In this document: in pieces, positions 1 to 12,179 of the stretch
How positions within the stretch are numbered: the stretch's first letter is position 1
Layout of the letters: each line of letters opens with the position of its first letter
Origin: Thermoproteota archaeon
GTDB taxonomy: Archaea > Korarchaeota > Korarchaeia > Korarchaeales > Korarchaeaceae
DNA: 12,179 bases
Assembly: GCA_027492205.1 (NCBI GenBank)
Contig: JAOZFN010000007.1
Location: 110,994-123,172, forward strand
Reading direction: 5' to 3'
The notes under the pieces: generated by a model
What the model saw: the letters and a program-made list of their open reading frames with translations, nothing else
What the model was told of the DNA's origin: nothing
The model's database searches: none
Position numbers and translations under genes: made by a program

Positions 1-23
1 CCTCCTCCGCCTCCTCCGCCTCC
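1..23 (-). repeat. 9-bp tandem repeat encoding a poly-Gly linker
   Basis: cctcctccg cctcctccg cctcc reads GGA GGC GGA GGA GGC GGA GGA on the - strand, in frame with the 1-413 ORF. Confidence 0.8.
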
Positions 24-413
24 GAAGGGCGGTCCTTGAGAGAGGCCAGCCACCCCCTCAGCCCGAGATACAAACATCAGGTCGCCGTGCTGAACCGTGT
101 AGTCTATTATGACTCCTGTAGGGGTAAGGTACGAGTTGTACGAGAACGCTATTCCCTTGTCGGACAGCTCATCCCTTAGAGCGCTGAGCTGCGCGTTCAA
201 CCACTCTACCCTGAAGGCTGGGTCTTCGATTTCCCCAGCGGCATTGGCAAGCTCCTTCACATAGTTAGAAACCTCTAGAAATCCCTCGTGGGCAGCTCGA
301 TCAACCACGACGGTGGGCCTCATCGCGGCTCCCGCGGTGGCAAAGATGAGGAGGGCCAGAGCCATTCCGACGAGCACTATAGTCCCAAATCCCCCTCTCT
401 TAGCCCACTTCAC
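1..413 (-). CDS. Pilin-like protein with putative class III signal peptide (partial; 3' end runs off the left edge)
   Basis: Not in the ORF track; translated by hand from GTG at 413: MKWAKRG|GFGTIVLVGMALALLIFATAGAAMRPTVVVDRAAHEGFLEVSNYVKELANAAGEIEDPAFRVEWLNAQLSALRDELSDKGIAFSYNSYLTPTGVIIDYTVQHGDLMFVSRAEGVAGLSQGPPFGGGGGG..., open to position 1. Basic-Gly leader followed by a hydrophobic helix; TATA-like element at 448-458; divergent from the pilus ATPase. Confidence 0.75.
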   Translation of the reverse strand, partial: MKWAKRGGFGTIVLVGMALALLIFATAGAAMRPTVVVDRAAHEGFLEVSNYVKELANAAGEIEDPAFRVEWLNAQLSALRDELSDKGIAFSYNSYLTPTGVIIDYTVQHGDLMFVSRAEGVAGLSQGPPFGGGGGGG

Positions 414-741: not shown

Positions 742-2223
742 ATGCCCAAGATCCGGAGAAAGAAGGGTTCAGAAACCACGATAGAGTTGAAGGATCCTAA
801 AGAGATCGTGGGGGAGCTCAACCTCCAGCACGTAGTCGAGCTGGTCCCCGGGATGGCCTACAGGGGCGTGAGAGAGGGCACCTACTACGTGATCGAGCCC
901 CCCCTCCCCGGGGAGCTGGCCAGTAGGATGCTCGAGGTGGGGAAGGAGTACGTCCTGGCCAGGGTCAGGCCGGAGCAGGCGGAGTACATGGAGAGGGTCT
1001 ACGAGAGGGCCGCTGAAACGGCCATAAAAGAGGCGGGGGTGAAGCTCAAGGGCGAGGAGGGCGATAAGGCCAGGGGGAGGTTGAGGGACTACCTGACGTA
1101 CTACCTCAGGAGGGACATCGAGGGGCTCGGCCCCATAGAGCCGGTGATGAGGGACCCGCACGTCGAGGACCTGACCCTCCCGGCCAGGGGCAGCAGGAGG
1201 CTGTACGTCTACCTGGGGGACCTCGGCGACTGGTTCAGGTCCAACATACGGATCGAGGAGGAGGAGGCCAAGAGGATCGTGCTGAAGCTGGCGGAGCTGG
1301 TCGGCAAGCAGGTGTCCCTGGCGGAGCCGAGGCTCGAGGGGAGGCTGCCGGACGGCAGCAGGGTGCACGCCCTCTACGGGGAGGCCGCAAGCTCGGGGGG
1401 AACCGTCTTCACCATAAGGAAGTTCGTGGTGAGGCCGACCATCGAGAAGCTGATACTGTGGGGCGCCATATCGCTGGAGGCCACCGCCTACCTCTGGACG
1501 CTCCTGGACCACGGCATCTCCGGCTTCATAGCGGGAGAGACCGGAACGGGTAAGACCACACTCCTCAACAGCCTCCTGTCACTCCTCCCGAGGAGGAAGC
1601 ACATAGTCACGGTCGAGGACACCGCCGAGATATTCCTGCCCGAGCACGAGAACTGGACCTCCCTCCTGGGGACCCCGCCCGGCATGGGGCCCAAGGGGCT
1701 CACGATAGTCGACCTCCTGAGGGACGTGCTCAGGATGAGGCCCGACTACGTCGTGGTGGGCGAGAGCAGGGGTGAGGAGACCAGGCTGCTCCTGCAGTTC
1801 ATCAACGTGGGCCACACGTCCCTCACGACGTTCCACTCCGACACGCTGGAGGGCGTGGTGAGGAGGCTCATGAGCGACCCGATAAACATGACCGTCGAGG
1901 AGGTCGCGAGCTTCAAGGTGGCGGTCCTCCTCAGGAGGAGGGGCAAGAAGAGGGGCGTGGTCAGGATCGCGGAGATACTCGCGACCCCGGAGAGGGACAG
2001 GATAGTCTTCAACGACGTATTCACGAGGCCGGGTGGTCTGGAGGGGCCCCTCGTCGGAGATCCGCTCCCCAAGAGCGTCCTGTTCTCGCAGATAGCGGAG
2101 CAGGAGGGGATACCCAAGGAGGTCATAGTGGAGGAGTTCTTCGACAAGGCGGAGGAGCTGCTGAGGAGGGTGGGCCGATTCAGCGGGAGGGAGGCGCTTG
2201 TCGAGGCTGAATCCGCTGAGTGA
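742..2223 (+). CDS. Type IV pilus assembly ATPase (archaeal PilB/TadA/VirB11/ArlI family)
   Basis: 493 aa; Walker A GETGTGKT, Asp box VTVEDTAE, LRMRPDYVVVGE (Walker B), His box GHTSLTTFH; N-terminal GLGPIEPVMRDPHVED and LPDGSRV motifs typical of this family. Confidence 0.95.
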   Translation: MPKIRRKKGSETTIELKDPKEIVGELNLQHVVELVPGMAYRGVREGTYYVIEPPLPGELASRMLEVGKEYVLARVRPEQAEYMERVYERAAETAIKEAGVKLKGEEGDKARGRLRDYLTYYLRRDIEGLGPIEPVMRDPHVEDLTLPARGSRRLYVYLGDLGDWFRSNIRIEEEEAKRIVLKLAELVGKQVSLAEPRLEGRLPDGSRVHALYGEAASSGGTVFTIRKFVVRPTIEKLILWGAISLEATAYLWTLLDHGISGFIAGETGTGKTTLLNSLLSLLPRRKHIVTVEDTAEIFLPEHENWTSLLGTPPGMGPKGLTIVDLLRDVLRMRPDYVVVGESRGEETRLLLQFINVGHTSLTTFHSDTLEGVVRRLMSDPINMTVEEVASFKVAVLLRRRGKKRGVVRIAEILATPERDRIVFNDVFTRPGGLEGPLVGDPLPKSVLFSQIAEQEGIPKEVIVEEFFDKAEELLRRVGRFSGREALVEAESAE

Positions 2224-3841
2224 GGAGTTCTTCATATCGGCGGGGATGTTCGACCAGAGCCCGTCCCGGTTCGCGCTGAGGATCGGCCTGATCGCATCTA
2301 TAATGCTTCTCCTGGCGTCTTCGCTCTACAGGACGGGCATGCTGACGGACCCCTACAGGCTGGCCCTGCTGGTCCTCACGCCGACCCTACCGCTCGCGCT
2401 CAGCCCGTACCTCGCCAGGCTGAACATGGGCGCCAAGCTCGAGAGGGACATGTGGGCCTACCTCGCCACCCTCTGGCTGCTCCAGAGGGCCAAGAAGTCC
2501 CTGAGCGAGTCGTTCAAGGCGGCCGGGGAGGTCTCAGACGACGAGGAGGTCAAGACCTACTTCAGGGTGGCCGCCGCCAGGCTGAAGGCCGCAGGGACGC
2601 TGGAGGGGCTCAGGGCCAACTTGAGGTACTGCCCGAGCTCCGCCTGGAGGAGGATCTACAGGCGCCTGGCGGACTACTTCTTCACCAGGGGTGAGGCCGT
2701 CGACGAGATGCTTGGGTCGGAGCTCCACGACACCATAAACAGGACCATGCAGGACCTGAGGAGGAACCTCGAGATGGTCATGGTCATCCTGATAATCTAC
2801 GTCCTGGTGTCCACGGTGTTTCCGTTCGTGGTCACGCTGCTCTACACCTTCCAGGCGCTGGTGTCGGGGTTCGGCGGCGGGGGGATGAGCAACCTGGCCC
2901 TGATGTCCGCCGTGCTCCCGTCCCCGATGTTCATAGCGCTCTTCAAGATACTTGCCCCACGCTACTACCGGTTCGACGGGGAGACCATGGCCCTGGGGTG
3001 GGGGGCCTTCGCCGCGGGGTTCATGGGCGCGGTCCTCGCCTCCTACTACGTCTGGACGGTAATCCCGCCCATCGGGGGGGGCGGGGTGGTCGCGACGGTC
3101 CTCAACTCGCTCAGGAGCATGAGCATCTGGCTCAGGGCGACCTTCGGCCTCCTCTTCGGGGGCCTGGCCGGCTGGCTGGCGGTCAGGGGCAGGGAGGCCA
3201 GGCTCAGGGGGGAGGCCCTGGACTACCCCCTATTCCTGCAGGACCTGTTCGTCGAGCTCAGGGGGGGCAGGAGCTTCTGCAAGGCCGTGGAGGACATGAA
3301 GGCCAGCTACAGGACCCTGAGGGAGTTCATGACGACGGTCAAGTACTGGGCCCGCCTCAGGCTGCCCTACACGGACATCCTCAGGTGGATATCGGAGAGG
3401 CAGAGGCAGAGCATCTCGAGGATGGCCACCCTCCTCATAATGACGGCGCTGGACGCCGGGGTGGAGCTCAAGGAGGCGTTCGGCACGATATCCCAGTTCA
3501 TGACCAGGGTCAGGGAGCTCTGGCTGGAGGCCGAGGCGGAGAAGAGGGGGAACTACGTGACGGCCATACTCTCCTTCACGTTCGCCGTGGCCTCCATCGC
3601 GATACTGGTCAGGCTCCTGAGCATCCCGATAGCCCCCACCGCGGCCGAGGTCATAAAGAGCGGGCTGATGCTCCAGGGATTCCTGCAGGCGCTGATAATG
3701 GGCCTCTCCCTCGGGGTGGTCAGGACGGGGCACCTGACGTCGTCGTTCAGGGAGATCTTCATCCTCTCTATTCCGACCATAGTGTCCCTGGCCCTCGTGC
3801 AGGCGTGGTCCCCTCCCCCGCTGACCATCGGGGGGGCGTGA
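2198..3841 (+). CDS. Type IV pilus membrane platform protein (TadC/PilC/ArlJ-like, two T2SSF-type halves)
   Basis: 547 aa polytopic membrane protein with two soluble helical regions (…YLATLWLLQRAKKSLSESFK…; …DYPLFLQDLFVELRGGRSFCKAVE…), each followed by TM helices; overlaps the ATPase stop; GGGAGG precedes TTG 2198 (alternative ATG at 2246). Confidence 0.9.
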   Translation: MSRLNPLSEEFFISAGMFDQSPSRFALRIGLIASIMLLLASSLYRTGMLTDPYRLALLVLTPTLPLALSPYLARLNMGAKLERDMWAYLATLWLLQRAKKSLSESFKAAGEVSDDEEVKTYFRVAAARLKAAGTLEGLRANLRYCPSSAWRRIYRRLADYFFTRGEAVDEMLGSELHDTINRTMQDLRRNLEMVMVILIIYVLVSTVFPFVVTLLYTFQALVSGFGGGGMSNLALMSAVLPSPMFIALFKILAPRYYRFDGETMALGWGAFAAGFMGAVLASYYVWTVIPPIGGGGVVATVLNSLRSMSIWLRATFGLLFGGLAGWLAVRGREARLRGEALDYPLFLQDLFVELRGGRSFCKAVEDMKASYRTLREFMTTVKYWARLRLPYTDILRWISERQRQSISRMATLLIMTALDAGVELKEAFGTISQFMTRVRELWLEAEAEKRGNYVTAILSFTFAVASIAILVRLLSIPIAPTAAEVIKSGLMLQGFLQALIMGLSLGVVRTGHLTSSFREIFILSIPTIVSLALVQAWSPPPLTIGGA

Positions 3842-3880
3842 GGCGAGGGGACTCGGAGGGGAGGGAGGTCCAATCCACCC

Positions 3881-4444
3881 CTAGGGCCAGTAGACGTGCA
3901 TGGACTGGGCTCCCCCGGGCCCGAACAGCCTGACCGTGAACCTCTCGACCCCGCCCTGGGCCAGGCTCGGGTAGTAGATCGCCCAGGTCTCCCCCGGCTC
4001 CAGGAGCTCCGGGTCGGAGTCCGGGCCGGACACGCTCTCGTAGCATATCGGCGGGTAGGTCCCCAGCCACCTGGACGGGAAGAAGCCCGTGGAGTTGTCG
4101 ACGGCCGCCGGCCAGGAGCATCCTCCGTCGAGGCCGAAGTCCGACCTGCAGACCTGATCTATCCACTGGTGCGACGGGTCGTCGAAGTAGCCCTCGACAC
4201 CGGACCTGGGGACCCTCGTGACCCCCACGTTCTTGACGTAGACGACCAGGAACCGATAGCCTCCCCTATCCTCGGAGGGCGTGACCGCGACGATCTGCAG
4301 GTTGTGGGAGGGTGCGTTGTAGAAGCTGTGGGACACGCCACCCAGGACGTACGACCCAAGCGGGGTGAAGGCGACCAGGGCCAGGGAGACCGCGAGCACG
4401 AGGAGCACGACGTCCACGACCACCCTGGACACGCCAGCCCCCAT
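3881..4444 (-). CDS. Archaeal type IV pilin-like protein (paralog D)
   Basis: 187 aa; MGAG|VSRVVVDVVLLVLAVSLALVAFTPLGSYVLGG; head motifs YVKNVG, LEPGET and FTVRLFGPGG shared with the other pilins; SD-like GGGGTGA overlaps the stop of the upstream pilin. Confidence 0.85.
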   Translation of the reverse strand: MGAGVSRVVVDVVLLVLAVSLALVAFTPLGSYVLGGVSHSFYNAPSHNLQIVAVTPSEDRGGYRFLVVYVKNVGVTRVPRSGVEGYFDDPSHQWIDQVCRSDFGLDGGCSWPAAVDNSTGFFPSRWLGTYPPICYESVSGPDSDPELLEPGETWAIYYPSLAQGGVERFTVRLFGPGGAQSMHVYWP

Positions 4445-4936
4445 GCCCTCACCCCGGCCTGTGGAGGTACTTGACCGACGTGGACTCTGGGCCGTAGACC
4501 TCTATGGAGAACTGGGATGTCGGGTTCTGGGCGGCCCCGCGGACGTAGAGCAGCCAGATCTCCCCCTCGCTCAGGCTGTTGTAGAAGCAGTCATCCGAAA
4601 TGTACCTCTCAGTCTCGTCAAACCAGGCGACGACGGCGCACGGCTTCACCGAGTACCTCCCGGAGGAGTTGTCGATGACCACCAGCCAGGCGTCCTCGTT
4701 CGGGGGGTTCCCCTGCGAGGGGCACCACCCGGCCACGTCGCCCAGGTCGCCCGGTCCCAGGTTCATGACGAAGATCCAGAGCCCGGGCTCCGACTCCGAG
4801 CCGCACCAGGTCACTCCCAGGCCGGTGGGGGGAGGCTTCTCCGGGTTTATCCCGACCACGTCGAGCATCGGATGCCCCGCAGCGGCCTGAACCCTAGACA
4901 TACCCCCCAGGACGTACGACCCCAGCGGGGTGAAGG
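4341..4936. repeat. 31-bp near-identical direct repeat between pilins D and C (4341-4371 and 4906-4936)
   Basis: cccaggacgtacgaccc(a/c)agcggggtgaagg, 30/31 identical; encodes FTPLGSYVLG on the - strand. Confidence 0.8.
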
Positions 4937-5024
4937 TTATGAGGGCCAGGGCGACCGAGAGGGCCAGGAGGGCGGCCTCCGCGGCCAGCCTGGCGATCCC
5001 CGCCCTGACGCAACGCGCCTGCAC
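4449..5024 (-). CDS. Archaeal type IV pilin-like protein (paralog C)
   Basis: 191 aa; …VRAG|IARLAAEAALLALSVALALITFTPLGSYVLGG; head motifs FVMNLGP, WLVVIDN, LSEGE and FSIEVYGP. Confidence 0.85.
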   Translation of the reverse strand: MQARCVRAGIARLAAEAALLALSVALALITFTPLGSYVLGGMSRVQAAAGHPMLDVVGINPEKPPPTGLGVTWCGSESEPGLWIFVMNLGPGDLGDVAGWCPSQGNPPNEDAWLVVIDNSSGRYSVKPCAVVAWFDETERYISDDCFYNSLSEGEIWLLYVRGAAQNPTSQFSIEVYGPESTSVKYLHRPG

Positions 5025-5040
5025 GACATTTTCCCTCTCT

Positions 5041-5066
5041 CGGGATATAATAAAGATATTTTCCCG
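5041..5066 (-). promoter_or_regulatory. Putative promoter of pilins C-D
   Basis: - strand CGGGAAAATATCTTTATTATATCCCG; TATA ends about 22 nt upstream of GTG 5024 (leaderless or near-leaderless); flanked by CGGGA…TCCCG inverted arms. Confidence 0.6.
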
Positions 5067-5208
5067 CAGAGGCCTGAATAGGGCCCGTGGAGGGGGTTTG
5101 GCCGGGACACCCGTGCGATGCCATTGAGAGTCCAGCCGCCCGCGGGAAGCAGAAGCCCTAGGCTGAAATTTGAGCCGCAGGGGCTTGTGGGAAGGGAAAA
5201 ACGGACAC

Positions 5209-5218
5209 CTTTATATTT
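5209..5218 (+). promoter_or_regulatory. Putative TATA box of pilins A-B
   Basis: CTTTATATTT about 50 nt upstream of GTG 5266; SD-like GGGGTGG at 5253-5259. Confidence 0.6.
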
Positions 5219-5252
5219 GTTCCCCGCCAGGTGAGTTACCACAGACCCCTGT

Positions 5253-5863
5253 GGGGTGGTTGAGGGTGAGGGCTGGCATATCCAGGGTGGTTGTGGAGGT
5301 CATCATACTGGTCATAGCGGTGGCGCTGGCCCTGCTGATCTTCAGCCCGGTGGGGAGCTACATATTCGGGGCGCTCGGCAGGACCTCCAGCGTGGGCGGG
5401 CAGACCACGATAGCCGTGATAAACGCAGGCTTCGATGGATCAGGGAACTTGCACCTCTACATAAAGAATGTGGGGCCAAACGACGTCGACCTCCAGGATA
5501 CCTCATCCCCATCGGTTGACTGGCAGGTCTTCATCAACAACGTGCCCGCAGGCAGTATGAGTTACGTCGGCGGTACAGTCCCTGACCCATTCACTGTAGA
5601 TTCCGTGATAGAGATTCAGATTTCAAGTAGCGACTCGTCCCTAAGTGGCCTATCTGAGACCAGCTCCTTCACCATAGTGGTGTACGGGCCCCAGGGCACC
5701 CAGACGGAGTACCTGTACAGGGGTGGTTGAGGGTGAGGGCTGGCATATCCAGGGTGGTTGTGGAGGTCATCATACTGGTCATAGCGGTGGCGCTGGCCCT
5801 GCTGATCTTCAGCCCGGTGGGGAGCTACATATTCGGGGCGCTCGGCAGGACCTCCAGCGTGGG
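5253..5863 (+). repeat. 144-bp perfect direct repeat (5253-5396 = 5720-5863)
   Basis: Identical base by base from GGGGTGGTTGAGGGTG… to …CAGCGTGGG; offset 467 bp; covers the SD, signal peptide and alpha-1 helix. Confidence 0.97.
5266..5730 (+). CDS. Archaeal type IV pilin (paralog A, probable major pilin)
   Basis: 154 aa from GTG 5266 (SD GGGGTGG 6 nt upstream; TTG 5260 is an alternative; the track's 5170 start lies upstream of the TATA box). MRAG|ISRVVVEVIILVIAVALALLIF, hydrophobic helix, beta-rich head with LYIKNVG and VVYGP. Confidence 0.9.
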   Translation: MRAGISRVVVEVIILVIAVALALLIFSPVGSYIFGALGRTSSVGGQTTIAVINAGFDGSGNLHLYIKNVGPNDVDLQDTSSPSVDWQVFINNVPAGSMSYVGGTVPDPFTVDSVIEIQISSSDSSLSGLSETSSFTIVVYGPQGTQTEYLYRGG

Positions 5864-6208
5864 GGGCAGCACAAGCATATCTGTGCTCTCAGTTAATTTA
5901 AGCAATGACGGGAGCCAACTGACCCTCTTCATAAAGAACGTTGGCCCAGGCTCGGTAGATGGCAGCAAGGCGCTGAACCCAGGAAATTGGAGCGTATTTA
6001 TTGATAATGTCAGGGCAACGATCCCCACCACTAACAACCCATCCGCATTCAGCGGTACCATAGGCTCTAGTGATCCCTGGGAGCCGGGAGAGGTGATCAA
6101 ACTCAATGTTAATCCACAAAACTCACCGGCTCCCTCACCAACTGGCTCCTTCACCATAGTGGTGTACGGGCCCCAGGGCACCCAGACGGAGTACCTGTAC
6201 AGGGGTGG
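5663..6208 (+). repeat. 64-bp perfect direct repeat (5663-5726 = 6145-6208)
   Basis: GCTCCTTCACCATAGTGGTGTACGGGCCCCAGGGCACCCAGACGGAGTACCTGTACAGGGGTGG in both copies; offset 482 bp; encodes SFTIVVYGPQGTQTEYLYRGG. Confidence 0.97.
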
Positions 6209-6212
6209 CTGA
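5733..6212 (+). CDS. Archaeal type IV pilin (paralog B, probable major pilin)
   Basis: 159 aa from GTG 5733; N- and C-termini identical to paralog A, central head diverged (LFIKNVG, WSVFIDN, WEPGE). Confidence 0.9.
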   Translation: MRAGISRVVVEVIILVIAVALALLIFSPVGSYIFGALGRTSSVGGSTSISVLSVNLSNDGSQLTLFIKNVGPGSVDGSKALNPGNWSVFIDNVRATIPTTNNPSAFSGTIGSSDPWEPGEVIKLNVNPQNSPAPSPTGSFTIVVYGPQGTQTEYLYRGG

Positions 6213-6220
6213 CCCCCCAG

Positions 6221-6246
6221 TCTTCTTTTTTGGAATGTAATGTTTT
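6221..6246 (+). terminator. Archaeal oligo-T terminator of the pilin A-B transcript
   Basis: TCTTCTTTTTT (6221-6231) begins 9 nt after the stop; a second TGTTTT follows at 6241-6246; lies between convergent genes. Confidence 0.65.
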
Positions 6247-6273
6247 GGCATAGATGGCCACGCGCGGTGCCTG

Positions 6274-8139
6274 CTACCCGCCTAGGGAGAGGATCTCCTG
6301 ATAATAGGAGTTGCAGGGGCCGTACACCTCCACGTTGACCCCCGAATAGGCGGGAAGCCTGTTTAGGTCTTCTTTATCTAGAACTAGGAGGACCTGAAGG
6401 CGGACGGCGCCCTCCGCAGTCTCCTCTTGGACTGCAGCCGTGTTCACCTCCGAAACCCTCACGGGGAACCCGTTCACAAAGACCTTCCAGTATGAAGGCT
6501 CCAGGACGTAATCGCTCAATGTAGGATCGACTGCTGCTATTGATATCGCCAATTTATATCGATCTGCCTCCACTGACCTGATCTCCGGCGGCCGCTCTCC
6601 CGTGGCCCTATATATCAGGAGAGAATAGGTCTCCGCCACCAGTTCGAAGCAAGGTGGGGGAAGCCTGTACTCCTCTGGAGACTCCCTCGTCACGACTATC
6701 GGCCTATCGGACTCTGCCAGCTCTGCCCCCTTAGGCTTGGAGATCCGCGATGCGATCTCGCATCCGGCAACGGTCAAGTACCTGGCTCTTACCCCTCCGA
6801 CAGCCGTGATCCCCCTCTCATTCCAACGACTGGCGCAGAAGCCCTCCATGTCGCTCCAAATCTCGATCTGATCATCATGCTCTGGAAGCCTAGCGTACGA
6901 GTAGGCCAGGGAGGCGGCCAGGATCACTGCCAGGAGGACGGCCTCGGCCCTAGGACCGAGACTTGGAGTCAACCTAGTCAGAGATAGGCCGGCCAGCAGA
7001 GAGAAGGGCAGAGCGAGCTGGAGGACGAACCTCCAGCTTTGTCCTGCGAATGCAATGCCCGAGAAGGAGAGATAAGAGGCGATAACTAGCCCTGCCGAGT
7101 ATCCGACCAGCCAGCCTGCGGGTCCCCAACCACGTACTTGGGTCATTCCGCCGAGAGACAGCGCTGACCACCAGGAGAGCAGCCTCGGAATGGGCCCGTG
7201 GAGGAGGGATACTAAGGCTCGAGCCAGCCCTCTGAGGCCAGGGAAGGCCTCAACAGTCCCCCTCCTTGCGTAACCGGAGAGCCTGATAGCTGGAAAATGC
7301 AGCCCTCCGCATACCAGCGCGGCGGAGAGTAGGGGAGCCGCGAGCCCGACTCTCCGTTTGGAGACGGCGGGAACCGCGAGAAACGCGAGGAAGTATAGCG
7401 TGGATGTGTGGGCGACGGGTAATGTGGCGCCCAAGGCCGCGGCCGCGATGAACCTCCTCCTCACGAGGAGGAGCGCGCAGAGAGCCGTGAGCGTGTCGGA
7501 CATCGCGTTGGCGTAAGTCCCCACCCTGAACAGGTGATACAGGCCCGAGGACATCGGAAGGAGGCTCCAGGATGAGAGGAGGCCGACCCTCCTCCCCCAC
7601 AGCTCTCGGCCGATCAGGTATATGAGGGCCCCCTGCGAGGCCGCCAGCGCGGCCAGGATGGCCCTGTAGGAGAGGATCCACCAGACCCCCGGGACCAGGG
7701 AGGCGCACGAGGCGCCGACCAGGTGGACCAGGAAGGGGTAGCCGGCGTCCACCCCGCCCCCCGAGGCGAACCTCAGGGACGACTGGAAGTGGTACAGCTC
7801 GTCCGGGTTGACCCAGGAGGCCGTCATGGGCCTGGCCGCGAGGTACACCGCGGTGACGGCCGCGTGCGGGGCCAGGGCGGCCAGGAAGCCCGGGTCCACC
7901 CGGGGGGATCGGCGGCCCCGGCGGCGGGCCGGCCCCAGGGCGAGGGTGACCGCCGCCAGCGCCGCGGGCAGGATGGCCGGGGGGTAGAGCCTGAGGACCG
8001 GGGCCAGGGCGGCCAGGGCCAGGGCTCCGACGGACGGGGCCGCGGCCAGGGCCTCCTCGAGCCGGTCGAAGAGGGAGACGGAGGCGGACAGCCCCACGAC
8101 GGCGGCCGCGACGGGCGGGACGACCCAGCCTGGGGACAC
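6274..8139 (-). CDS. GT-C-fold integral membrane glycosyltransferase (PMT/ArnT/STT3-like architecture) with a C-terminal pilin-head-like domain
   Basis: 621 aa; many TM segments; NPDELYH acidic motif in an external loop followed by GYPFLVH, and the IYLIGRELWGRRVGLLSS pattern typical of GT-C proteins; WRF after late TMs; soluble C-terminal ~200 aa. Family assigned from motifs only. Confidence 0.7.
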   Translation of the reverse strand: MSPGWVVPPVAAAVVGLSASVSLFDRLEEALAAAPSVGALALAALAPVLRLYPPAILPAALAAVTLALGPARRRGRRSPRVDPGFLAALAPHAAVTAVYLAARPMTASWVNPDELYHFQSSLRFASGGGVDAGYPFLVHLVGASCASLVPGVWWILSYRAILAALAASQGALIYLIGRELWGRRVGLLSSWSLLPMSSGLYHLFRVGTYANAMSDTLTALCALLLVRRRFIAAAALGATLPVAHTSTLYFLAFLAVPAVSKRRVGLAAPLLSAALVCGGLHFPAIRLSGYARRGTVEAFPGLRGLARALVSLLHGPIPRLLSWWSALSLGGMTQVRGWGPAGWLVGYSAGLVIASYLSFSGIAFAGQSWRFVLQLALPFSLLAGLSLTRLTPSLGPRAEAVLLAVILAASLAYSYARLPEHDDQIEIWSDMEGFCASRWNERGITAVGGVRARYLTVAGCEIASRISKPKGAELAESDRPIVVTRESPEEYRLPPPCFELVAETYSLLIYRATGERPPEIRSVEADRYKLAISIAAVDPTLSDYVLEPSYWKVFVNGFPVRVSEVNTAAVQEETAEGAVRLQVLLVLDKEDLNRLPAYSGVNVEVYGPCNSYYQEILSLGG

Positions 8140-8157
8140 GCACGCCCCGTCGGGGGG

Positions 8158-8168
8158 CTTTTTATTAG
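8158..8168. promoter_or_regulatory. Single AT island, probably serving the divergent GT-C and GT4 genes
   Basis: CTTTTTATTAG is the only AT-rich element between 8139(-) and 8193/8214(+). Confidence 0.5.
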
Positions 8169-8213
8169 TCTGTCGGCCCCGCCGCCAGCCCGGTGGGGGC
8201 CGGGGGAACCCTC

Positions 8214-9500
8214 ATGGGCGCGTCGACCGGGCGCGGGGTGACGGTGGTCCTGCTCGCCATGTTCTTCCCACCGAACCCGAGCGGGGGCTCCGCGCGCGCC
8301 TTCAAGTCGGCCCTGGCGTTCGCGAGGAGTCCAGAGGTCGAGAGGGTGTACGTGCTGGCGTCCAGGAGGCCCCTCCGCGAGGATCGCTGGGGGGGCCGCA
8401 GCCCTGGGGTCGAGGGGGCGCTCGAGGGGCTGGGTGTGAGGGTTATCAGGCTGCCCCTGCCCCCCGTCAGGCACGGCGGGGCCGCGGCCAGGGCCGTCCT
8501 CTACCTCCTGTACTCGGCCATGGCCCTGCCGCCCCTGCTGTGGATCCTGCTGAGGGCCCGCGGGGACCGCCTCGTGGTGGCCCACACCCCCCACGTGCTG
8601 GCCGCCATCGTCGGGCGCGCGGCCTCCGCCCTGACGGGAGCCAGGCTGGTCCACGTCGTCCACGACGTCTGGCCGGACGAGTTCGCCGAGTTCGAGGGGG
8701 GCGGGATGGTCCTGAGGATCGTGGACTGGCTTGCGAGGATCTCTTACTCGTCTCCGGACGCCCTGATAGTCGCCAGCGAGGAGATGAGGGAGTACCTGTC
8801 CAGGAAGCTCGGCGGGAGGCATCCCCCGGCGATTGTCGGCTACACCGGGTCGGTCCTGGCCGAGGTATCTGCCCCCGTGGGGGAGGGGGCCGCGGCGCCC
8901 GGTGGGCCGGCTGGCCGGGGCGCGGGGAGGAGGATCGTCCTCGGCTATCTGGGGAACGTGGGCCACTCCTCAGGGCTCGCTGAGGTCGTGAGGATGCTAC
9001 GCGAGTGCTGCGCGGCGGCGGGGTGCGAAGTGGACGTCCTGGTGGTCGGTGTCGGGAGGTTCGTCGAGTCCCTGGGGAGGGAGGGGCGTGGGGCCGCCGG
9101 CCTGAGGGTCAGGGTCCTGGGGCCGCTCCCCCCCGAGGGGGTGGCCACCGTCCTGGGGGGCGTCGACGCCCTCCTCCTGCCGATCAGGGGGAGGGTGATA
9201 GGGAGCATCGGCACGACCACCAAGATATTCGACTACCTCTACCTCTGCAGGCCGATCGTGCTGATCGCCGAGGCAGAGGGGGGCCCGGCGAGCAGGATTG
9301 TGGGTCGGCTCTTCCCCGAGCTGGTGGTCGGGTGGAGCCTGGAGGGTGTCTGCGCGGCCCTGAGGGAAGTCTGCCTCGGGGGGGTGCGGGTCGAGAGGGG
9401 GGACTGCCTGTCCATCCTTGAGGAGATTGACCGAGACCGCTCCATGGACAGGGCTGCCCGGGAGGTGCTGGGAATCCTGTTCCGAGGTGGGGAGGGGTAG
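8214..9500 (+). CDS. GT4-family (GT-B fold) glycosyltransferase, WbuB-like
   Basis: N-terminal VVLLAMFFPPNPSGG, VHVVHDVWPD, YLGNVGHSSGL, TKIFDYLYLCRPIV (cf. PxKLxEYxAxGKPI). ATG 8214 has a GGGGGA SD; GTG 8193 and 8238 are alternatives. Confidence 0.85.
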   Translation: MGASTGRGVTVVLLAMFFPPNPSGGSARAFKSALAFARSPEVERVYVLASRRPLREDRWGGRSPGVEGALEGLGVRVIRLPLPPVRHGGAAARAVLYLLYSAMALPPLLWILLRARGDRLVVAHTPHVLAAIVGRAASALTGARLVHVVHDVWPDEFAEFEGGGMVLRIVDWLARISYSSPDALIVASEEMREYLSRKLGGRHPPAIVGYTGSVLAEVSAPVGEGAAAPGGPAGRGAGRRIVLGYLGNVGHSSGLAEVVRMLRECCAAAGCEVDVLVVGVGRFVESLGREGRGAAGLRVRVLGPLPPEGVATVLGGVDALLLPIRGRVIGSIGTTTKIFDYLYLCRPIVLIAEAEGGPASRIVGRLFPELVVGWSLEGVCAALREVCLGGVRVERGDCLSILEEIDRDRSMDRAAREVLGILFRGGEG

Positions 9501-9504
9501 GTGG

Positions 9505-10647
9505 GTGGCTAGGGCGGCGTTCATCTCCTCCTGGGCGGGGGAGCCCAGGACTTGGCGGATGGCGAGGGTGGCGCGGGAGGCCGGGCTGGAGGTCCTCGTG
9601 GTGGAGTGGGAGAGGGTCCCCTCCCCGCCTCCCCCCGCTGTGGAGGGCGTCCTGGTCCTGAGGTACCGCAGGCCAGCCCCCTCCGGGTTCAAGCTCGCGA
9701 AGATCCTCCCCTACGTGCTGTTCCACTGGTTCGCCCTCAGGGCCCTCCTCCGCTGGAGGCCCGAGGTCGTGCAGTTCCAGCTCCTGATAAACGCCCCTCC
9801 CGCCCTCATCTACAGGCTCGTGAGGAGGAGGGACTGCACGCTGATATTCGACATATCTGATCCCTACTGCCTGTCTCACGTCCCGAAGGCGCTCTTCGGG
9901 GCCGTGCGCCTGGTTGAGAGGATCGTGGCGAAGGCGGCAGACGTCAGGCTGATCCCGGATCCGTCGAGGTCCTCCGTCCTGGGTCGCGACCTGGGCTACG
10001 TAGTGGTCTACAACTCCCCCCTCCCGGAGTGGGTCCCCCGACCCCCCGAGGCAGCGCCGAGGGGGGAGGCCCCCGTGAAGCCGATGGGGAGGTTGACGGT
10101 CGCCTACCTCGGGGTCCTCTCCGAGGACCGGGGGCTGAGGTGCGCTATCGAGGCCGTGAGGAGGGTGGGAGGCCCCGTCCACCTGGTCATCGCTGGATGG
10201 GGCCCGATGGCAGGCCGAGTTATTGAGGCGGCGAGGTCGACCCCCAACGTGGAGTACCTGGGCCTCCTGGCCCACCGGGATGCGATGCGCGTAATGCGGG
10301 GGGCCGACGTCGTCCTGGCGCTCTACGACCCCAGCAACCCAAACAACGTTCTGGCGGCGCCCAACAAGCTGTACGAGGCGCTATCCCTTGGGAAACCCCT
10401 GATAGTCAACGATGGAACGGCGCTATCTGACCTGATCAGGGAGTGGGGGGCGGGGATCGTGGTTCCCTACTGCGACGCGGAGTCCCTTCAGTCGGCCCTC
10501 AGGAGGCTGACGGACGAGAGGCTCCTCGGCACGCTGGGGGATGGGGCCTACTCCCTGTGGCGCCACGTGTATGGGAGGGTCTCGGAGTCATACCGCCGCC
10601 TGAAGAGCGTGTACGAGGCGGCCGGTGTCGGGCACCCAGGAGGCTGA
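9505..10647 (+). CDS. GT4-family glycosyltransferase
   Basis: 380 aa from GTG 9505 (GGAGGGG SD 7 nt upstream; 4 nt after the previous stop); EPRTWRMA, LIFDISD, YLGVLSEDRGL, NVEYLG, AAPNKLYEALSLGKPLIV. Confidence 0.9.
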   Translation: MARAAFISSWAGEPRTWRMARVAREAGLEVLVVEWERVPSPPPPAVEGVLVLRYRRPAPSGFKLAKILPYVLFHWFALRALLRWRPEVVQFQLLINAPPALIYRLVRRRDCTLIFDISDPYCLSHVPKALFGAVRLVERIVAKAADVRLIPDPSRSSVLGRDLGYVVVYNSPLPEWVPRPPEAAPRGEAPVKPMGRLTVAYLGVLSEDRGLRCAIEAVRRVGGPVHLVIAGWGPMAGRVIEAARSTPNVEYLGLLAHRDAMRVMRGADVVLALYDPSNPNNVLAAPNKLYEALSLGKPLIVNDGTALSDLIREWGAGIVVPYCDAESLQSALRRLTDERLLGTLGDGAYSLWRHVYGRVSESYRRLKSVYEAAGVGHPGG

Positions 10648-10649
10648 CC

Positions 10650-11606
10650 CTACCGGAGGACGACCGATGCGACCACCGCGGCCAGACCGAACGTGGCCTG
10701 AAACGCGATGGCCTTCAAGGCCACCAACTGCTCTCTCTCCCCCCTGGCCATCCAGAGGCTCCAGAGAGCCTCGAGGCCGTCCGAGTAAACGAGCCCATCC
10801 ACCGCCTCGCCGACGGTCCACTCCATCCCCTTAGAGAGCCTTATCAGGAAGTTCAGGAGGTAAGGGATCGTCGCTATCAGGCCCGCCGCCTTTATCGTAC
10901 CAGCCACGATTGAGGAGGCGAGGGCGGCGCCCACGAGGTAAGTGCCGACGTTCCCGGGGAACACCCTCGCCGGGTACCAGTTCCACCTGAGGAACGCGAG
11001 CAGCGCCCCTGAGAGGGCGGCCAGGGCGGTCGAGGAGGTCCAGCTCCCGTAGAGGGCGGCGCAGATCGAGAGCGAGAGCGCCGTCACGAGCCCGGCCCCG
11101 GCCTCCAGGCCGTTGAAGCCCGCGTAGATGTTCACCGCGTTGAGCATGTAGGCGAACCCAAGGGGGACTAGAGCCCAGAACGCGGCACCGAGCTCCACCC
11201 TCCCCCAGGGGGAGGAGTATATCACCGGCTCACCGGCCCTGAAGGCCACCATGGGGGCGCCCGCGAGGGCGGACCCGATCACGAGGCTCACCCTCCCCAG
11301 GTGGAAGAGGTCGTCGATGAGTCCGAGGATGGCCCCCAGCGTCGTTGAGAGGGATATGGCCAAAGCGAGCTCTGGATCGACGCCCGTGAAGCCGGCCACG
11401 GTGATCCCTGAGAGGAAACCCAGGAGGACCGCGAGTCCGCCCAGGCTTGCGATCTCGGGCGCTCCTGGCTTGTGGAGGTCCCTCCCCACAAGGCCGGTGA
11501 GCCTGCACCTGGAGATCACCGCCGGCGTCGAGGCCCACGTGACCGCGAGGCCGACCGCGAACGCCAGTATGGGTGAGAGGAGGGTGGCCGTTCCCGCGGC
11601 CCTCAT
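10650..11606 (-). CDS. aglH: UDP-N-acetylhexosamine:dolichyl-phosphate HexNAc-1-phosphate transferase (AglH/GPT, MraY-WecA superfamily)
   Basis: GRDLHK, LGGLA, GLIDD, NAVNIYAGFNGLE, WNWYPARVFPGNVG; multiple TMs. ATG 11606 preferred over 11633 because a TATA-like ATTAAAT (11638-11632) lies about 26 nt upstream of it. Confidence 0.85.
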   Translation of the reverse strand: MRAAGTATLLSPILAFAVGLAVTWASTPAVISRCRLTGLVGRDLHKPGAPEIASLGGLAVLLGFLSGITVAGFTGVDPELALAISLSTTLGAILGLIDDLFHLGRVSLVIGSALAGAPMVAFRAGEPVIYSSPWGRVELGAAFWALVPLGFAYMLNAVNIYAGFNGLEAGAGLVTALSLSICAALYGSWTSSTALAALSGALLAFLRWNWYPARVFPGNVGTYLVGAALASSIVAGTIKAAGLIATIPYLLNFLIRLSKGMEWTVGEAVDGLVYSDGLEALWSLWMARGEREQLVALKAIAFQATFGLAAVVASVVLR

Positions 11607-11628
11607 GCAGGGCGTGGGATTCAGAAAC

Positions 11629-11641
11629 AGCATTTAATGCT
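11629..11641 (-). promoter_or_regulatory. Palindromic TATA-like element upstream of aglH
   Basis: AGCATT-T-AATGCT, perfect 6-bp arms around the AT core. Confidence 0.45.
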
Positions 11642-11785
11642 CTCGCCCGGGCCGGCCTACCAGGGGGGGTGCTCGCCCCCCACCAGCGTTCGGCGCCTCG
11701 ACCCGGGCCCCGGATCCCGCTGCGGGTCTCCGAACCTCTCCACGCGTCCCATGTGGCGAAAGTTTCAGGCAGCGCGGGCGTCGGG

Positions 11786-11802
11786 CGAAGAAGCGTTATA
11801 TT
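11786..11802 (+). promoter_or_regulatory. BRE/TATA promoter for a leaderless acylphosphatase-domain gene
   Basis: CGAAGAAGCGTTATATT; TTATA ends 25 nt before GTG 11826; no SD. Confidence 0.55.
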
Positions 11803-11825
11803 CTCCGCCCACCTCCCTTACCCTC

Positions 11826-12179
11826 GTGAAGAGGAGGATCGTCGTATCCGGGCCAAGGGTCCACGGGGTGGGGTACCGCGCGCTGGTGTTCGACCTCGCC
11901 CTCCGGCTGGGCCTGGACAGGCTTCTAGTTTACAACGCGGAGTCCGAGGGGGTCCAGCAGGTCGTGATCCTCGTCGAGGGCGAAGAAGATCAGGTCGAAG
12001 AGTTCCTGAGGTCCCTGGAGGAGAGGAGGCCAGCTGGCGCTGAGGTCGAGTCCATGTCGGTGGAGGAGTACGTGGGCGGCGTTCCCCCCATCGAGAGGAC
12101 CCTCCTGGCGTTTCAGGCCGAGCAGTGGGCCCTCGGAATACCGATTCTGCTGGAAGTAGCCGAGAACACGAGGCTGATC
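11826..12179 (+). CDS. Acylphosphatase-domain protein with C-terminal helical extension (partial)
   Basis: Not in the ORF track; hand translation MKRRIVVSGPRVHGVGYRALVFDLALRLGLDRLLVYNAESEGVQQVVILVEGEEDQVEEFLRSLEERRPAGAEVESMSVEEYVGGVPPIERTLLAFQAEQWALGIPILLEVAENTRLI…; matches the acylphosphatase GxV(Q/H)GVG(F/Y)R signature with a downstream Asn and VEG. Confidence 0.85.
   Translation, partial: MKRRIVVSGPRVHGVGYRALVFDLALRLGLDRLLVYNAESEGVQQVVILVEGEEDQVEEFLRSLEERRPAGAEVESMSVEEYVGGVPPIERTLLAFQAEQWALGIPILLEVAENTRLI

Follow-up and report, generated by a model that had tools for sequence, protein, structure and literature searches.

Locus organization

We analyzed a 12,179-nucleotide (nt) stretch of DNA, hereafter the window, from a Thermoproteota archaeon of the Korarchaeaceae (GCA_027492205.1, contig JAOZFN010000007.1, positions 110,994 to 123,172 of the forward strand; genome of 1.94 Mb, 96% complete). 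On its minus strand, at 6274..8139 with the stop codon included, lies the gene for a 621-amino acid (aa) protein, P0001, which we predict to be a GT-C-fold membrane glycosyltransferase. The protein divides into a transmembrane GT-C module (residues 1-419; 6883..8139), a predicted extracytoplasmic alpha/beta linker domain (residues 420-514; 6598..6882) and a C-terminal pilin-head-like beta-sandwich, the C-domain (residues 515-621; 6277..6597), all on the same strand. Positions 6274-6591 hold the final 105 codons of this open reading frame (ORF) together with its stop codon. Our central result is that the C-domain is homologous, at the level of sequence profiles, to the globular heads of the pilins encoded beside it.

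The left part of the window carries a minor-pilin-like ORF (3-413, minus strand), a pilus assembly ATPase (742..2223, plus; Pfam T2SSE, E 3.2e-29) and a pilus membrane platform protein (2198..3841, plus; Pfam T2SSF in two stretches, E 2.9e-10). Four pilin genes follow: pilin D (3881..4444, minus; E 2.4e-13 with a pilin-head hidden Markov model (HMM)), pilin C (4449..5024, minus; E 2.7e-17 with the same model), pilin A (5260..5730, plus), a tandem paralogue of pilin B whose start, hence ~5260, was placed from its repeat with B, and pilin B itself (5727..6212, plus), a 161-aa protein with a RAG-type class III signal peptide. The pilin B and GT-C genes are convergent, and their ends are 61 nt apart. 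Beyond the GT-C gene are two GT-B glycosyltransferases, one GT4-like (8193..9500, plus; Pfam Glyco_trans_4_4, E 3e-16) and one of the GT4 / group 1 type (9418..10647, plus; Pfam Glyco_trans_1_4, E 8.1e-15, and Glycos_transf_1, E 6.1e-12), a polyprenyl-phosphate sugar-1-phosphate transferase of the AglH/WecA/MraY family (10650..11633, minus; Pfam PF00953, E 3.4e-29) and an acylphosphatase-domain gene (11637 onward, plus).

The four pilins, the GT-C enzyme, the two GT4 enzymes and the PF00953 enzyme occupy ~7.8 kb (3842..11636) between the platform and acylphosphatase-like genes. In G001, a genome of the same genus, the platform gene (5211-6773) is followed after ~90 nt by an acylphosphatase-like gene (6867-7442) that is 93% identical to window positions 11757-12179. 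As G001 joins these two genes directly, the block at 3842-11636 is an accessory island. A search for the GT-C gene in G001-G004 gave no match beyond short GC-rich stretches, placing the enzyme in 0/4 of the other genomes of the genus, and no flanking direct repeats were found at the island boundaries.

Assignment of the enzyme to the GT-C class

P0001 has no sequence match in Pfam (E <= 1), NCBIfam or the PDB. Sequence searches of the PDB with the family alignment and with the C-domain alignment returned nothing meaningful, and a word-index protein search with P0001 recovered only the query itself (1/7,999 scored candidates). A full-length AlphaFold model built from a 14-sequence alignment reached a mean predicted local distance difference test score (pLDDT) of 81.1 and a predicted template modelling score of 0.80. 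In this model residues 1-419 are all-helical, with helices running from H3 to H415, and the linker domain is a mixture of helices and strands (pLDDT 58-82 per block). When the model was compared to the PDB with Foldseek, GT-C enzymes filled every one of ranks 1-35, and 21 matches had E <= 0.001. The top match was ALG12 (1.1e-5), and ALG9 was also present, together with yeast and human STT3, PglB, AglB, ArnT, AftA, EmbA/B/C, DPY19, Pmt4 and AftD. The GT-C identity that had been proposed from the sequence thus holds in the AlphaFold model and in the Foldseek ranking, and P0001 has a predicted GT-C fold.

Conserved motifs lie in the same module. An N-P-D-E motif (residues 111-114; 7798..7809, minus) in the first loop after helix 83-102 contains a candidate catalytic acidic pair, and the pattern N-[PQ]-D-[ED] is kept in 11/11 family sequences that cover this region. 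Because the loop follows an Arg-rich loop (69-83), the positive-inside rule would place it on the outer side of the membrane. The pattern HLF..GTY.N...D occurs in all 12 sequences that cover it (12/12), Arg370 (W-R370) is near-invariant across the family, and the linker domain is conserved in the subclade alignment, for example at W428, D430, C460 and PCF 496-498.

WWDxG is the motif of the C-terminal domain of STT3/AglB. It is absent from P0001, in which the sole WW precedes S-A-L, and the STT3 profile PF02516 does not match P0001. A canonical STT3 gene is located elsewhere in the genome, on contig 16. By motif and profile, P0001 is not an STT3. Two distant family members matched PMT_2 (PF13231; cut-off 26.1 bits) below threshold, P0013 with 19.1 bits (E 0.0016) and P0011 with 12 bits (E 0.25); P0001, P0007 and the homologue in genome G005 gave no PMT_2 match. 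We treat the resemblance of the family to PMT_2 as a lead, and likewise the nearest ESM Atlas language-model clusters, which are labelled Dol-P-Man protein mannosyltransferase-like (score 0.97).

Homology of the C-domain to pilin heads

The sequence-only reading had matched the last ~105 aa of the enzyme, by eye, to the heads of the neighboring pilins, and all three of its blocks recur in computed alignments. BLASTP aligned enzyme residues 522-567 with pilin B residues 57-104, a stretch that covers the block LEPSYWKVFVNG / LNPGNWSVFIDN, at E 0.012 (single comparison). The comparison with pilin A gave E 0.039 and that with pilin C, over the block SGVNVEVYGP / SQFSIEVYGP, gave E 0.78; nothing useful was obtained for pilin D. 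Identity between the C-domain and the local pilins is only 20-25%, and as a pairwise sequence match the relationship would be called marginal.

Profile-to-profile comparison gave a much stronger signal. An alignment of six C-domains (effective number of sequences 2.6) matched an alignment of 123 pilin heads in hhalign with a probability of 97.2%, E 4e-11 and a score of 61.7. In a permissive run the alignment extended end-to-end over 97 columns, recovering the first by-eye block as well, at low confidence. As controls, 40 column-shuffled C-domain alignments scored at most 16.6 (mean 10.3) and the reversed alignment scored 11.7. A separate alignment of 66 pilins was matched with 96.6% probability (E 5.4e-10). 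The result did not depend on the window, as the probability was 96.9% without the window protein and 97.1% without the window pilins, and single C-domains, each alone in hhalign, reached 73.6-94.6%. Tails from domain-less members of the family, which are also beta-rich, gave 0.1-0.2% against the pilin heads. We conclude from the hhalign results and their controls that the C-terminal domain of the GT-C enzyme is homologous, at profile level, to the neighboring pilin heads. On profile evidence this homology is a property of a subclade and extends beyond a single gene.

Searches of genomes with the C-domain point the same way. Among 20,393 ORFs of its own genome, pilin B was the only non-self match of the C-domain HMM below E 0.01 (1.2e-3), and with an HMM built without the query pilin B still ranked second (E 0.056). 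In the reciprocal search of the same genome with a pilin-head HMM, the enzyme ranked 8th, directly after seven pilin-like ORFs (E 0.28). Run on 40 genomes of the class translated in six frames, the C-domain profile matched 15 places: the C-termini of three GT-C enzymes and 12 pilin-like ORFs. The latter are the genome's own pilin B and 11 others, and all 11, when translated, show an N-terminal hydrophobic helix and a pilin-type head. Judged by these searches, the C-domain is nearer to these pilins than to anything else in the 40 related genomes or in its own. A [YH]-G-P hallmark near the C-terminus is found in 5/5 intact C-domains and also, in a shifted frame, in the homologue from genome G015. 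The C-domain has no Pfam match, and an ESM Atlas search with the C-domain alone gave no usable match.

A class III signal peptide and an N-terminal hydrophobic helix are absent before the C-domain, which is preceded by the soluble residues 420-514. Lacking this signal peptide and assembly helix, the domain cannot be a filament subunit.

Structural comparison of the C-domain

The C-domain model (pLDDT 77.6) is a beta-sandwich of 7-8 strands. Plain Foldseek ranked EpoR first (7e-4) and MHC-II next, with the FlaF/FlaG structure 6pbk in 16th place (E 5.9e-3). A second look with VIA at 999 Foldseek-ranked chains gave a different order: FlaF/FlaG structures make up five of the top six, led by FlaF 4zbh (Z 8.5, root mean square deviation (rmsd) 2.8, 91 aligned residues) and FlaF 4p94 (Z 8.3), with FlaG 6pbk, 5tuh and 5tug at Z 7.5-7.4, and generic immunoglobulin (Ig) domains peak at Z 7.1. 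A wide VIA search found the bacterial S-layer domains SbsC and Sap at Z 8.6-8.4, the archaeal Aap pilin 8q30 at Z 7.6 (rmsd 2.8, 87 aligned), the Saccharolobus pilus 8fjs at Z 6.7 and archaellins at 6.4-6.2.

The claim that the C-domain is closer to the local pilins than to generic Ig folds therefore stands by sequence profile, but structure discriminates weakly (Z 8.5-7.4 versus ~7). Among solved structures, the best sequence match of the pilin profile is FlaG 5tug (E 0.026). With FlaF/FlaG leading the VIA second look, this makes a coherent chain from the C-domain through the pilin head to a FlaF/FlaG-type fold, and the C-domain shares ancestry with the pilin head, whose fold is of the FlaF/FlaG/archaellin type. 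When residues 420-621 of the enzyme were modelled together with the head of pilin B (44-161), in a run without controls, the complex scored 0.00 against a mark of 0.32, which speaks neither for nor against binding.

The enzyme family and its linkage to pilins

An exhaustive HMMER search of 1.84 billion representatives returned 11 proteins at E <= 0.001, nine of which are credible relatives; the 11 include P0001 itself and P0012. The latter, a 964-aa leucine-rich-repeat protein with 10 weak stretches, was rejected on reading its sequence as a repeat artefact. Whole-genome searches added homologues in G005, G015, G014 (three copies), G011 and G043. The family is very small and, in the searches made, is found only in Korarchaeota-type genomes. 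The C-domain is confined to one subclade and is present in six sequences: P0001, P0007, the G005 homologue, P0010, P0014 and P0008, which is the G015 protein. A search for further loci with the subclade alignment gave two already-known loci in genome contigs and none in metagenome contigs, and P0007 alone gave none.

The sequence-only reading had asked whether homologues with the domain always neighbor such pilins. A pilin-family ORF is present in 8/8 GT-C loci with context (the window, G005, G015, the three of G014, G011 and G043), including the three that encode the domain (window, G005 and G015); P0007, P0010/P0139 and P0014, which also carry the domain, fall outside these eight. In six of the eight (window, G014 x3, G011 and G043) a pilin lies within ~250 nt of the GT-C gene, and in the other two the nearest pilin gene is ~3.1 kb (G005) or ~1.9 kb (G015) away in the same pilus locus.

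Genes for glycan synthesis flank the GT-C gene in three genera, and their types differ. The domain-bearing GT-C gene of G005 has as its neighbors genes for a 226-aa GT2 enzyme and an NAD-dependent epimerase (L008:7931-8608 and 5776-6510), and not for a PF00953 enzyme; the locus also holds an A24 prepilin peptidase. G014 has three paralogous cassettes (L010, L011 and L012, on contigs C84, C145 and C141) in which a domain-less GT-C gene is convergent with a pilin gene at a distance of 28-40 nt, and two of the three carry PF00953 and GT2 genes upstream. The G015 homologue has a frameshift near its end (L009:1250-1520, contig C4), so that the annotated frame runs into unrelated sequence; another frame encodes a '...VVYGPG...' ending followed by a stop, retaining the Y-G-P-G motif. 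This frame change could be either an assembly error or a real frameshift.

Pilin identity and composition

Pilin B matches Pfam Arch_flagellin (PF01917) with E 6.7e-6 and 27 bits, below the 29.5-bit cut-off, and the NCBIfam models ArlG (1.5e-4) and UpsA (2.8e-3) are likewise sub-threshold. It has 177 homologues. One source labels the pilin homologues as FlaG/FlaF family, and the source organisms of the relatives are named Candidatus Korarchaeota, Candidatus Methanodesulfokora washburnensis or Thermoproteota.

N-x-S/T sequons are absent from pilin A; pilin B has two, and C and D have one each. The head of pilin A is 23% Ser+Thr. Composition was scored for the 120/123 pilins with a [YFH]GP motif, the three without it being dropped. 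In this set (n=120) Ser+Thr make up on average 22% of the head and 33% of the 12 residues that precede the last strand, and 55/120 pilins have no sequon. The C-domains contain 8-12% Ser+Thr and are without the Ser/Thr-rich loop of the pilins.

Proposed function and alternative explanations

We think it on balance probable that P0001 is a lipid-phosphate-sugar-dependent GT-C enzyme, of a family dedicated to the type IV pilus, that glycosylates pilins. The analysis establishes the predicted fold, the homology of the C-domain, the linkage to pilin genes and the island, and from there we infer a donor, an acceptor, an O-linkage, a topology and a docking role as follows. The neighboring PF00953 enzyme and the two GT4 enzymes would build a dolichol-linked glycan at the cytoplasmic face. 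Once this glycan has been flipped to the outer face, the GT-C enzyme would transfer it, or a sugar, to pilins that are still anchored in the membrane and not yet assembled, and the likeliest targets would be the Ser/Thr-rich loops of the pilin heads. O-linkage is favored because the pilin heads are Ser/Thr-rich and many have no sequon, and the system would operate apart from the canonical AglB, whose gene lies at another place in the genome. As the C-domain is poor in Ser and Thr and without the corresponding loop, it may be a non-substrate mimic of a pilin that binds an incoming pilin head through a filament-type head-to-head contact and holds the acceptor loop over the active site. The docking role taken alone is a tentative proposal, which we would put at somewhat doubtful.

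Several observations weigh against this interpretation. As P0001 has no sequence match in Pfam, NCBIfam or the PDB, the GT-C assignment rests on predicted structure and motifs, and the acceptor of the top Foldseek match, ALG12, is a lipid-linked glycan, not a protein. HMM-to-sequence searches relate the C-domain to pilins with marginal scores, at E 1.2e-3 with the full model, 0.056 once the query is left out and 0.28 in the opposite direction. Structure barely separates the C-domain from generic Ig-like folds, with FlaF/FlaG leading by ~1 Z unit, and S-layer domains equalled or outscored the Aap pilin in the wide VIA search. We recognized no flippase gene in the window. In G005 a small GT2 stands in place of the PF00953 enzyme, so the type of glycan donor may differ between genomes. 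Finally, the domain-less family members (G014 x3, G011, G043 and P0009) also adjoin pilins. It follows that neither the basic role of the family nor its linkage to pilins depends on the domain, which is an accessory elaboration.

The last of these observations, that domain-less members keep the pilin linkage, also suits a reading in which the enzyme is pilus-associated and its C-domain is a FlaF/FlaG-type module serving as an S-layer anchor or spacer or in enzyme oligomerization. Shared ancestry with pilins would then be real and would say nothing about substrate capture. The archaellum stator protein FlaF has been reported to contact the S-layer, and the best structural matches of the C-domain are FlaF (Z 8.5, 8.3), FlaG (7.5-7.4) and the S-layer domains SbsC and Sap (8.6-8.4); the label FlaG/FlaF given to the pilin homologues by one source fits as well. 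The sequence profile of the C-domain is nevertheless closest to the co-located pilins, with the [YH]-G-P hallmark common to both, and we consider such a module fairly unlikely. A convergent or chance resemblance to pilin heads, in which the C-domain would be unrelated to pilins and one of the Ig-like sandwiches often found at the ends of GT-C enzymes, is in our view very improbable and rates lowest of all. The low pairwise identity (20-25%), the BLASTP values (E 0.012-0.78), the preference of plain Foldseek for generic Ig domains and an alignment of just six sequences (effective number 2.6) would agree with it, yet the hhalign score of 61.7 compares to a shuffle maximum of 16.6, the tails of domain-less members reach 0.1-0.2%, the signal is robust to removal of the query and of the local pilins, and 12/12 non-enzyme matches in the 40 genomes are pilin-like.

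A further alternative concerns the acceptor. P0001 could act on glycan instead of the pilin polypeptide, either extending a lipid-linked glycan, as ALG-type enzymes do, or capping a pilin glycan placed by AglB. The latter would resemble Haloferax AglS, to which addition of the terminal sugar to an AglB-placed pilin glycan is assigned. ALG12 at 1.1e-5 and the presence of ALG9 among the Foldseek matches fit this proposal, as do the canonical STT3/AglB in the genome and the sequons of pilins B, C and D. Foldseek E-values across the GT-C classes (1e-5 to 1e-4), however, do not discriminate, pilin A and 55/120 family pilins have no sequon, and both the adjacency to pilins in 8/8 loci and a pilin-derived domain fit direct recognition of a protein better. 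We regard a glycan acceptor as rather improbable and return to pilin glycosylation as the favored function. In its most far-reaching form, that function would make the family the first identified archaeal pilin-specific O-oligosaccharyltransferase, a GT-C enzyme unrelated to AglB and to the bacterial PglL/TfpO, with a subclade that docks its substrate through a non-glycosylatable copy of the pilin head, reusing the head-to-head contact of the filament; so complete a version we think unlikely.

Relation to known systems

Archaeal surface filaments are heavily glycosylated, and only the N-linked AglB route is understood; archaeal AglB glycosylates archaellins and pilins. AglB, STT3 and PglB resemble P0001 in fold (8agc, 5ogl, 3wak, 3rce and 7e9s at 3e-5 to 2e-3) and in having an extracytoplasmic C-terminal soluble part. 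P0001 differs from AglB/STT3 in that it has neither PF02516 nor WWDxG and that its acidic motif is N-P-D-E. Enzymes of the PMT/ArnT type (PMT_2, PF13231) share with P0001 an Asp-Glu pair in the first outer loop and are found among its structural matches (ArnT 5f15 at 6e-5 and 5ezm at 2e-4; Pmt4 9i5k at 5e-3). Unlike them, P0001 has no MIR domains and falls below Pfam thresholds, and its pilin-like domain has no counterpart there.

For the C-domain, FlaF and FlaG (ArlF/ArlG) offer a precedent for an archaellin/pilin-type head outside the filament shaft. Each exists as a separate protein and has an N-terminal membrane helix of its own, whereas the C-domain is the tail of an enzyme and has no such helix. 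The archaeal pilins of known structure (Aap 8q30 and Saccharolobus 8fjs) share the head fold with the C-domain, which differs in having no signal peptide and no assembly helix.

TfpW is a GT-C class enzyme that adjoins a pilin gene. It is a multi-span membrane pilin glycosyltransferase/oligosaccharyltransferase of the group IV pili of Pseudomonas aeruginosa, with periplasmic loop 1, a large periplasmic C-terminal domain and a lipid-carrier-linked sugar that is made in the cytoplasm, as summarized in the abstract of its report (bioRxiv 10.1101/2020.04.19.049825). It differs from P0001 in being bacterial and in transferring D-arabinofuranose, and that abstract does not mention a pilin-like domain. 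By description of function, and not by sequence or structure, TfpW would be the closest analogue.

The literature found on archaeal type IV pilins and GT-C glycosyltransferases concerned bacterial enzymes only, and no described fusion of a GT-C enzyme with a pilin head was found, in agreement with the sequence-only reading, which knew of none. The main text of a census of archaeal type IV pili (PMC4858521) does not contain 'glycosyl', and its supplement may list glycosyltransferase neighbors. Passages in two papers describe the enzyme or pathway of archaeal O-glycosylation as unknown, or 'still elusive'. What is new here is a pilin-linked GT-C family with an unprecedented substrate-like domain. 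Its candidate features for an O-linked route are a GT-C fold that is not STT3, pilin genes at every locus seen, an island with its own glycan-building genes, and adjacent pilins that are Ser/Thr-rich and often without sequons. If the proposal is correct, the archaeal O-glycosylation pathway gains a concrete candidate gene, and a diverged copy of the globular domain of the presumed substrate would be an unusual route to substrate specificity. The C-domain also illustrates how a pilin head can be recruited to a new use. The organisms have not been cultured, the family is very small, and we infer every functional step; given the GT-C fold, the pilin linkage, the island and the Ser/Thr-rich pilins, the question of O-linkage is testable by reconstitution.

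Sequence history of the island and related pilin genes

Codon usage changes within the GT-C gene. G+C content at third codon positions (GC3) is ~0.98 over codons 1-175 and ~0.6-0.7 over codons 250-621; the lower values match those of pilin A (0.73) and pilin B (0.68), and the other island genes have 0.87-0.93. The step may reflect a recombination mosaic. Segment-wise identity of P0001 to P0007 and to the G005 homologue gave no mosaic that would explain it. The values hint that the 3′ part of the enzyme gene may share a history with pilins A and B. For the ATPase, encoded outside the island, identity between genomes of the genus is just 73-75%.

Pilins A and B are 94% identical over 166 nt at the 5′ end (5253-5418 and 5720-5885) and 99% identical over 68 nt at the 3′ end (5663-5730 and 6145-6212), and divergent in the middle, which encodes the exposed head. 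This pattern suggests gene conversion at the ends combined with surface diversification. Outside the window, a stop-to-stop frame in genome G000 (contig C3:71308-72483, minus strand) opens with a pilin-head-like segment (HMM E 1.1e-6, residues 8-121); it has no visible N-terminal helix, and the remainder looks non-coding. It could be a pilin remnant or another fusion of the head domain. In genome G009 (contig C9:73417-76608, L023), a family pilin is part of a 404-aa frame whose long C-terminal extension is rich in Lys/Arg and finishes with a hydrophobic stretch, an unusual arrangement for a pilin.

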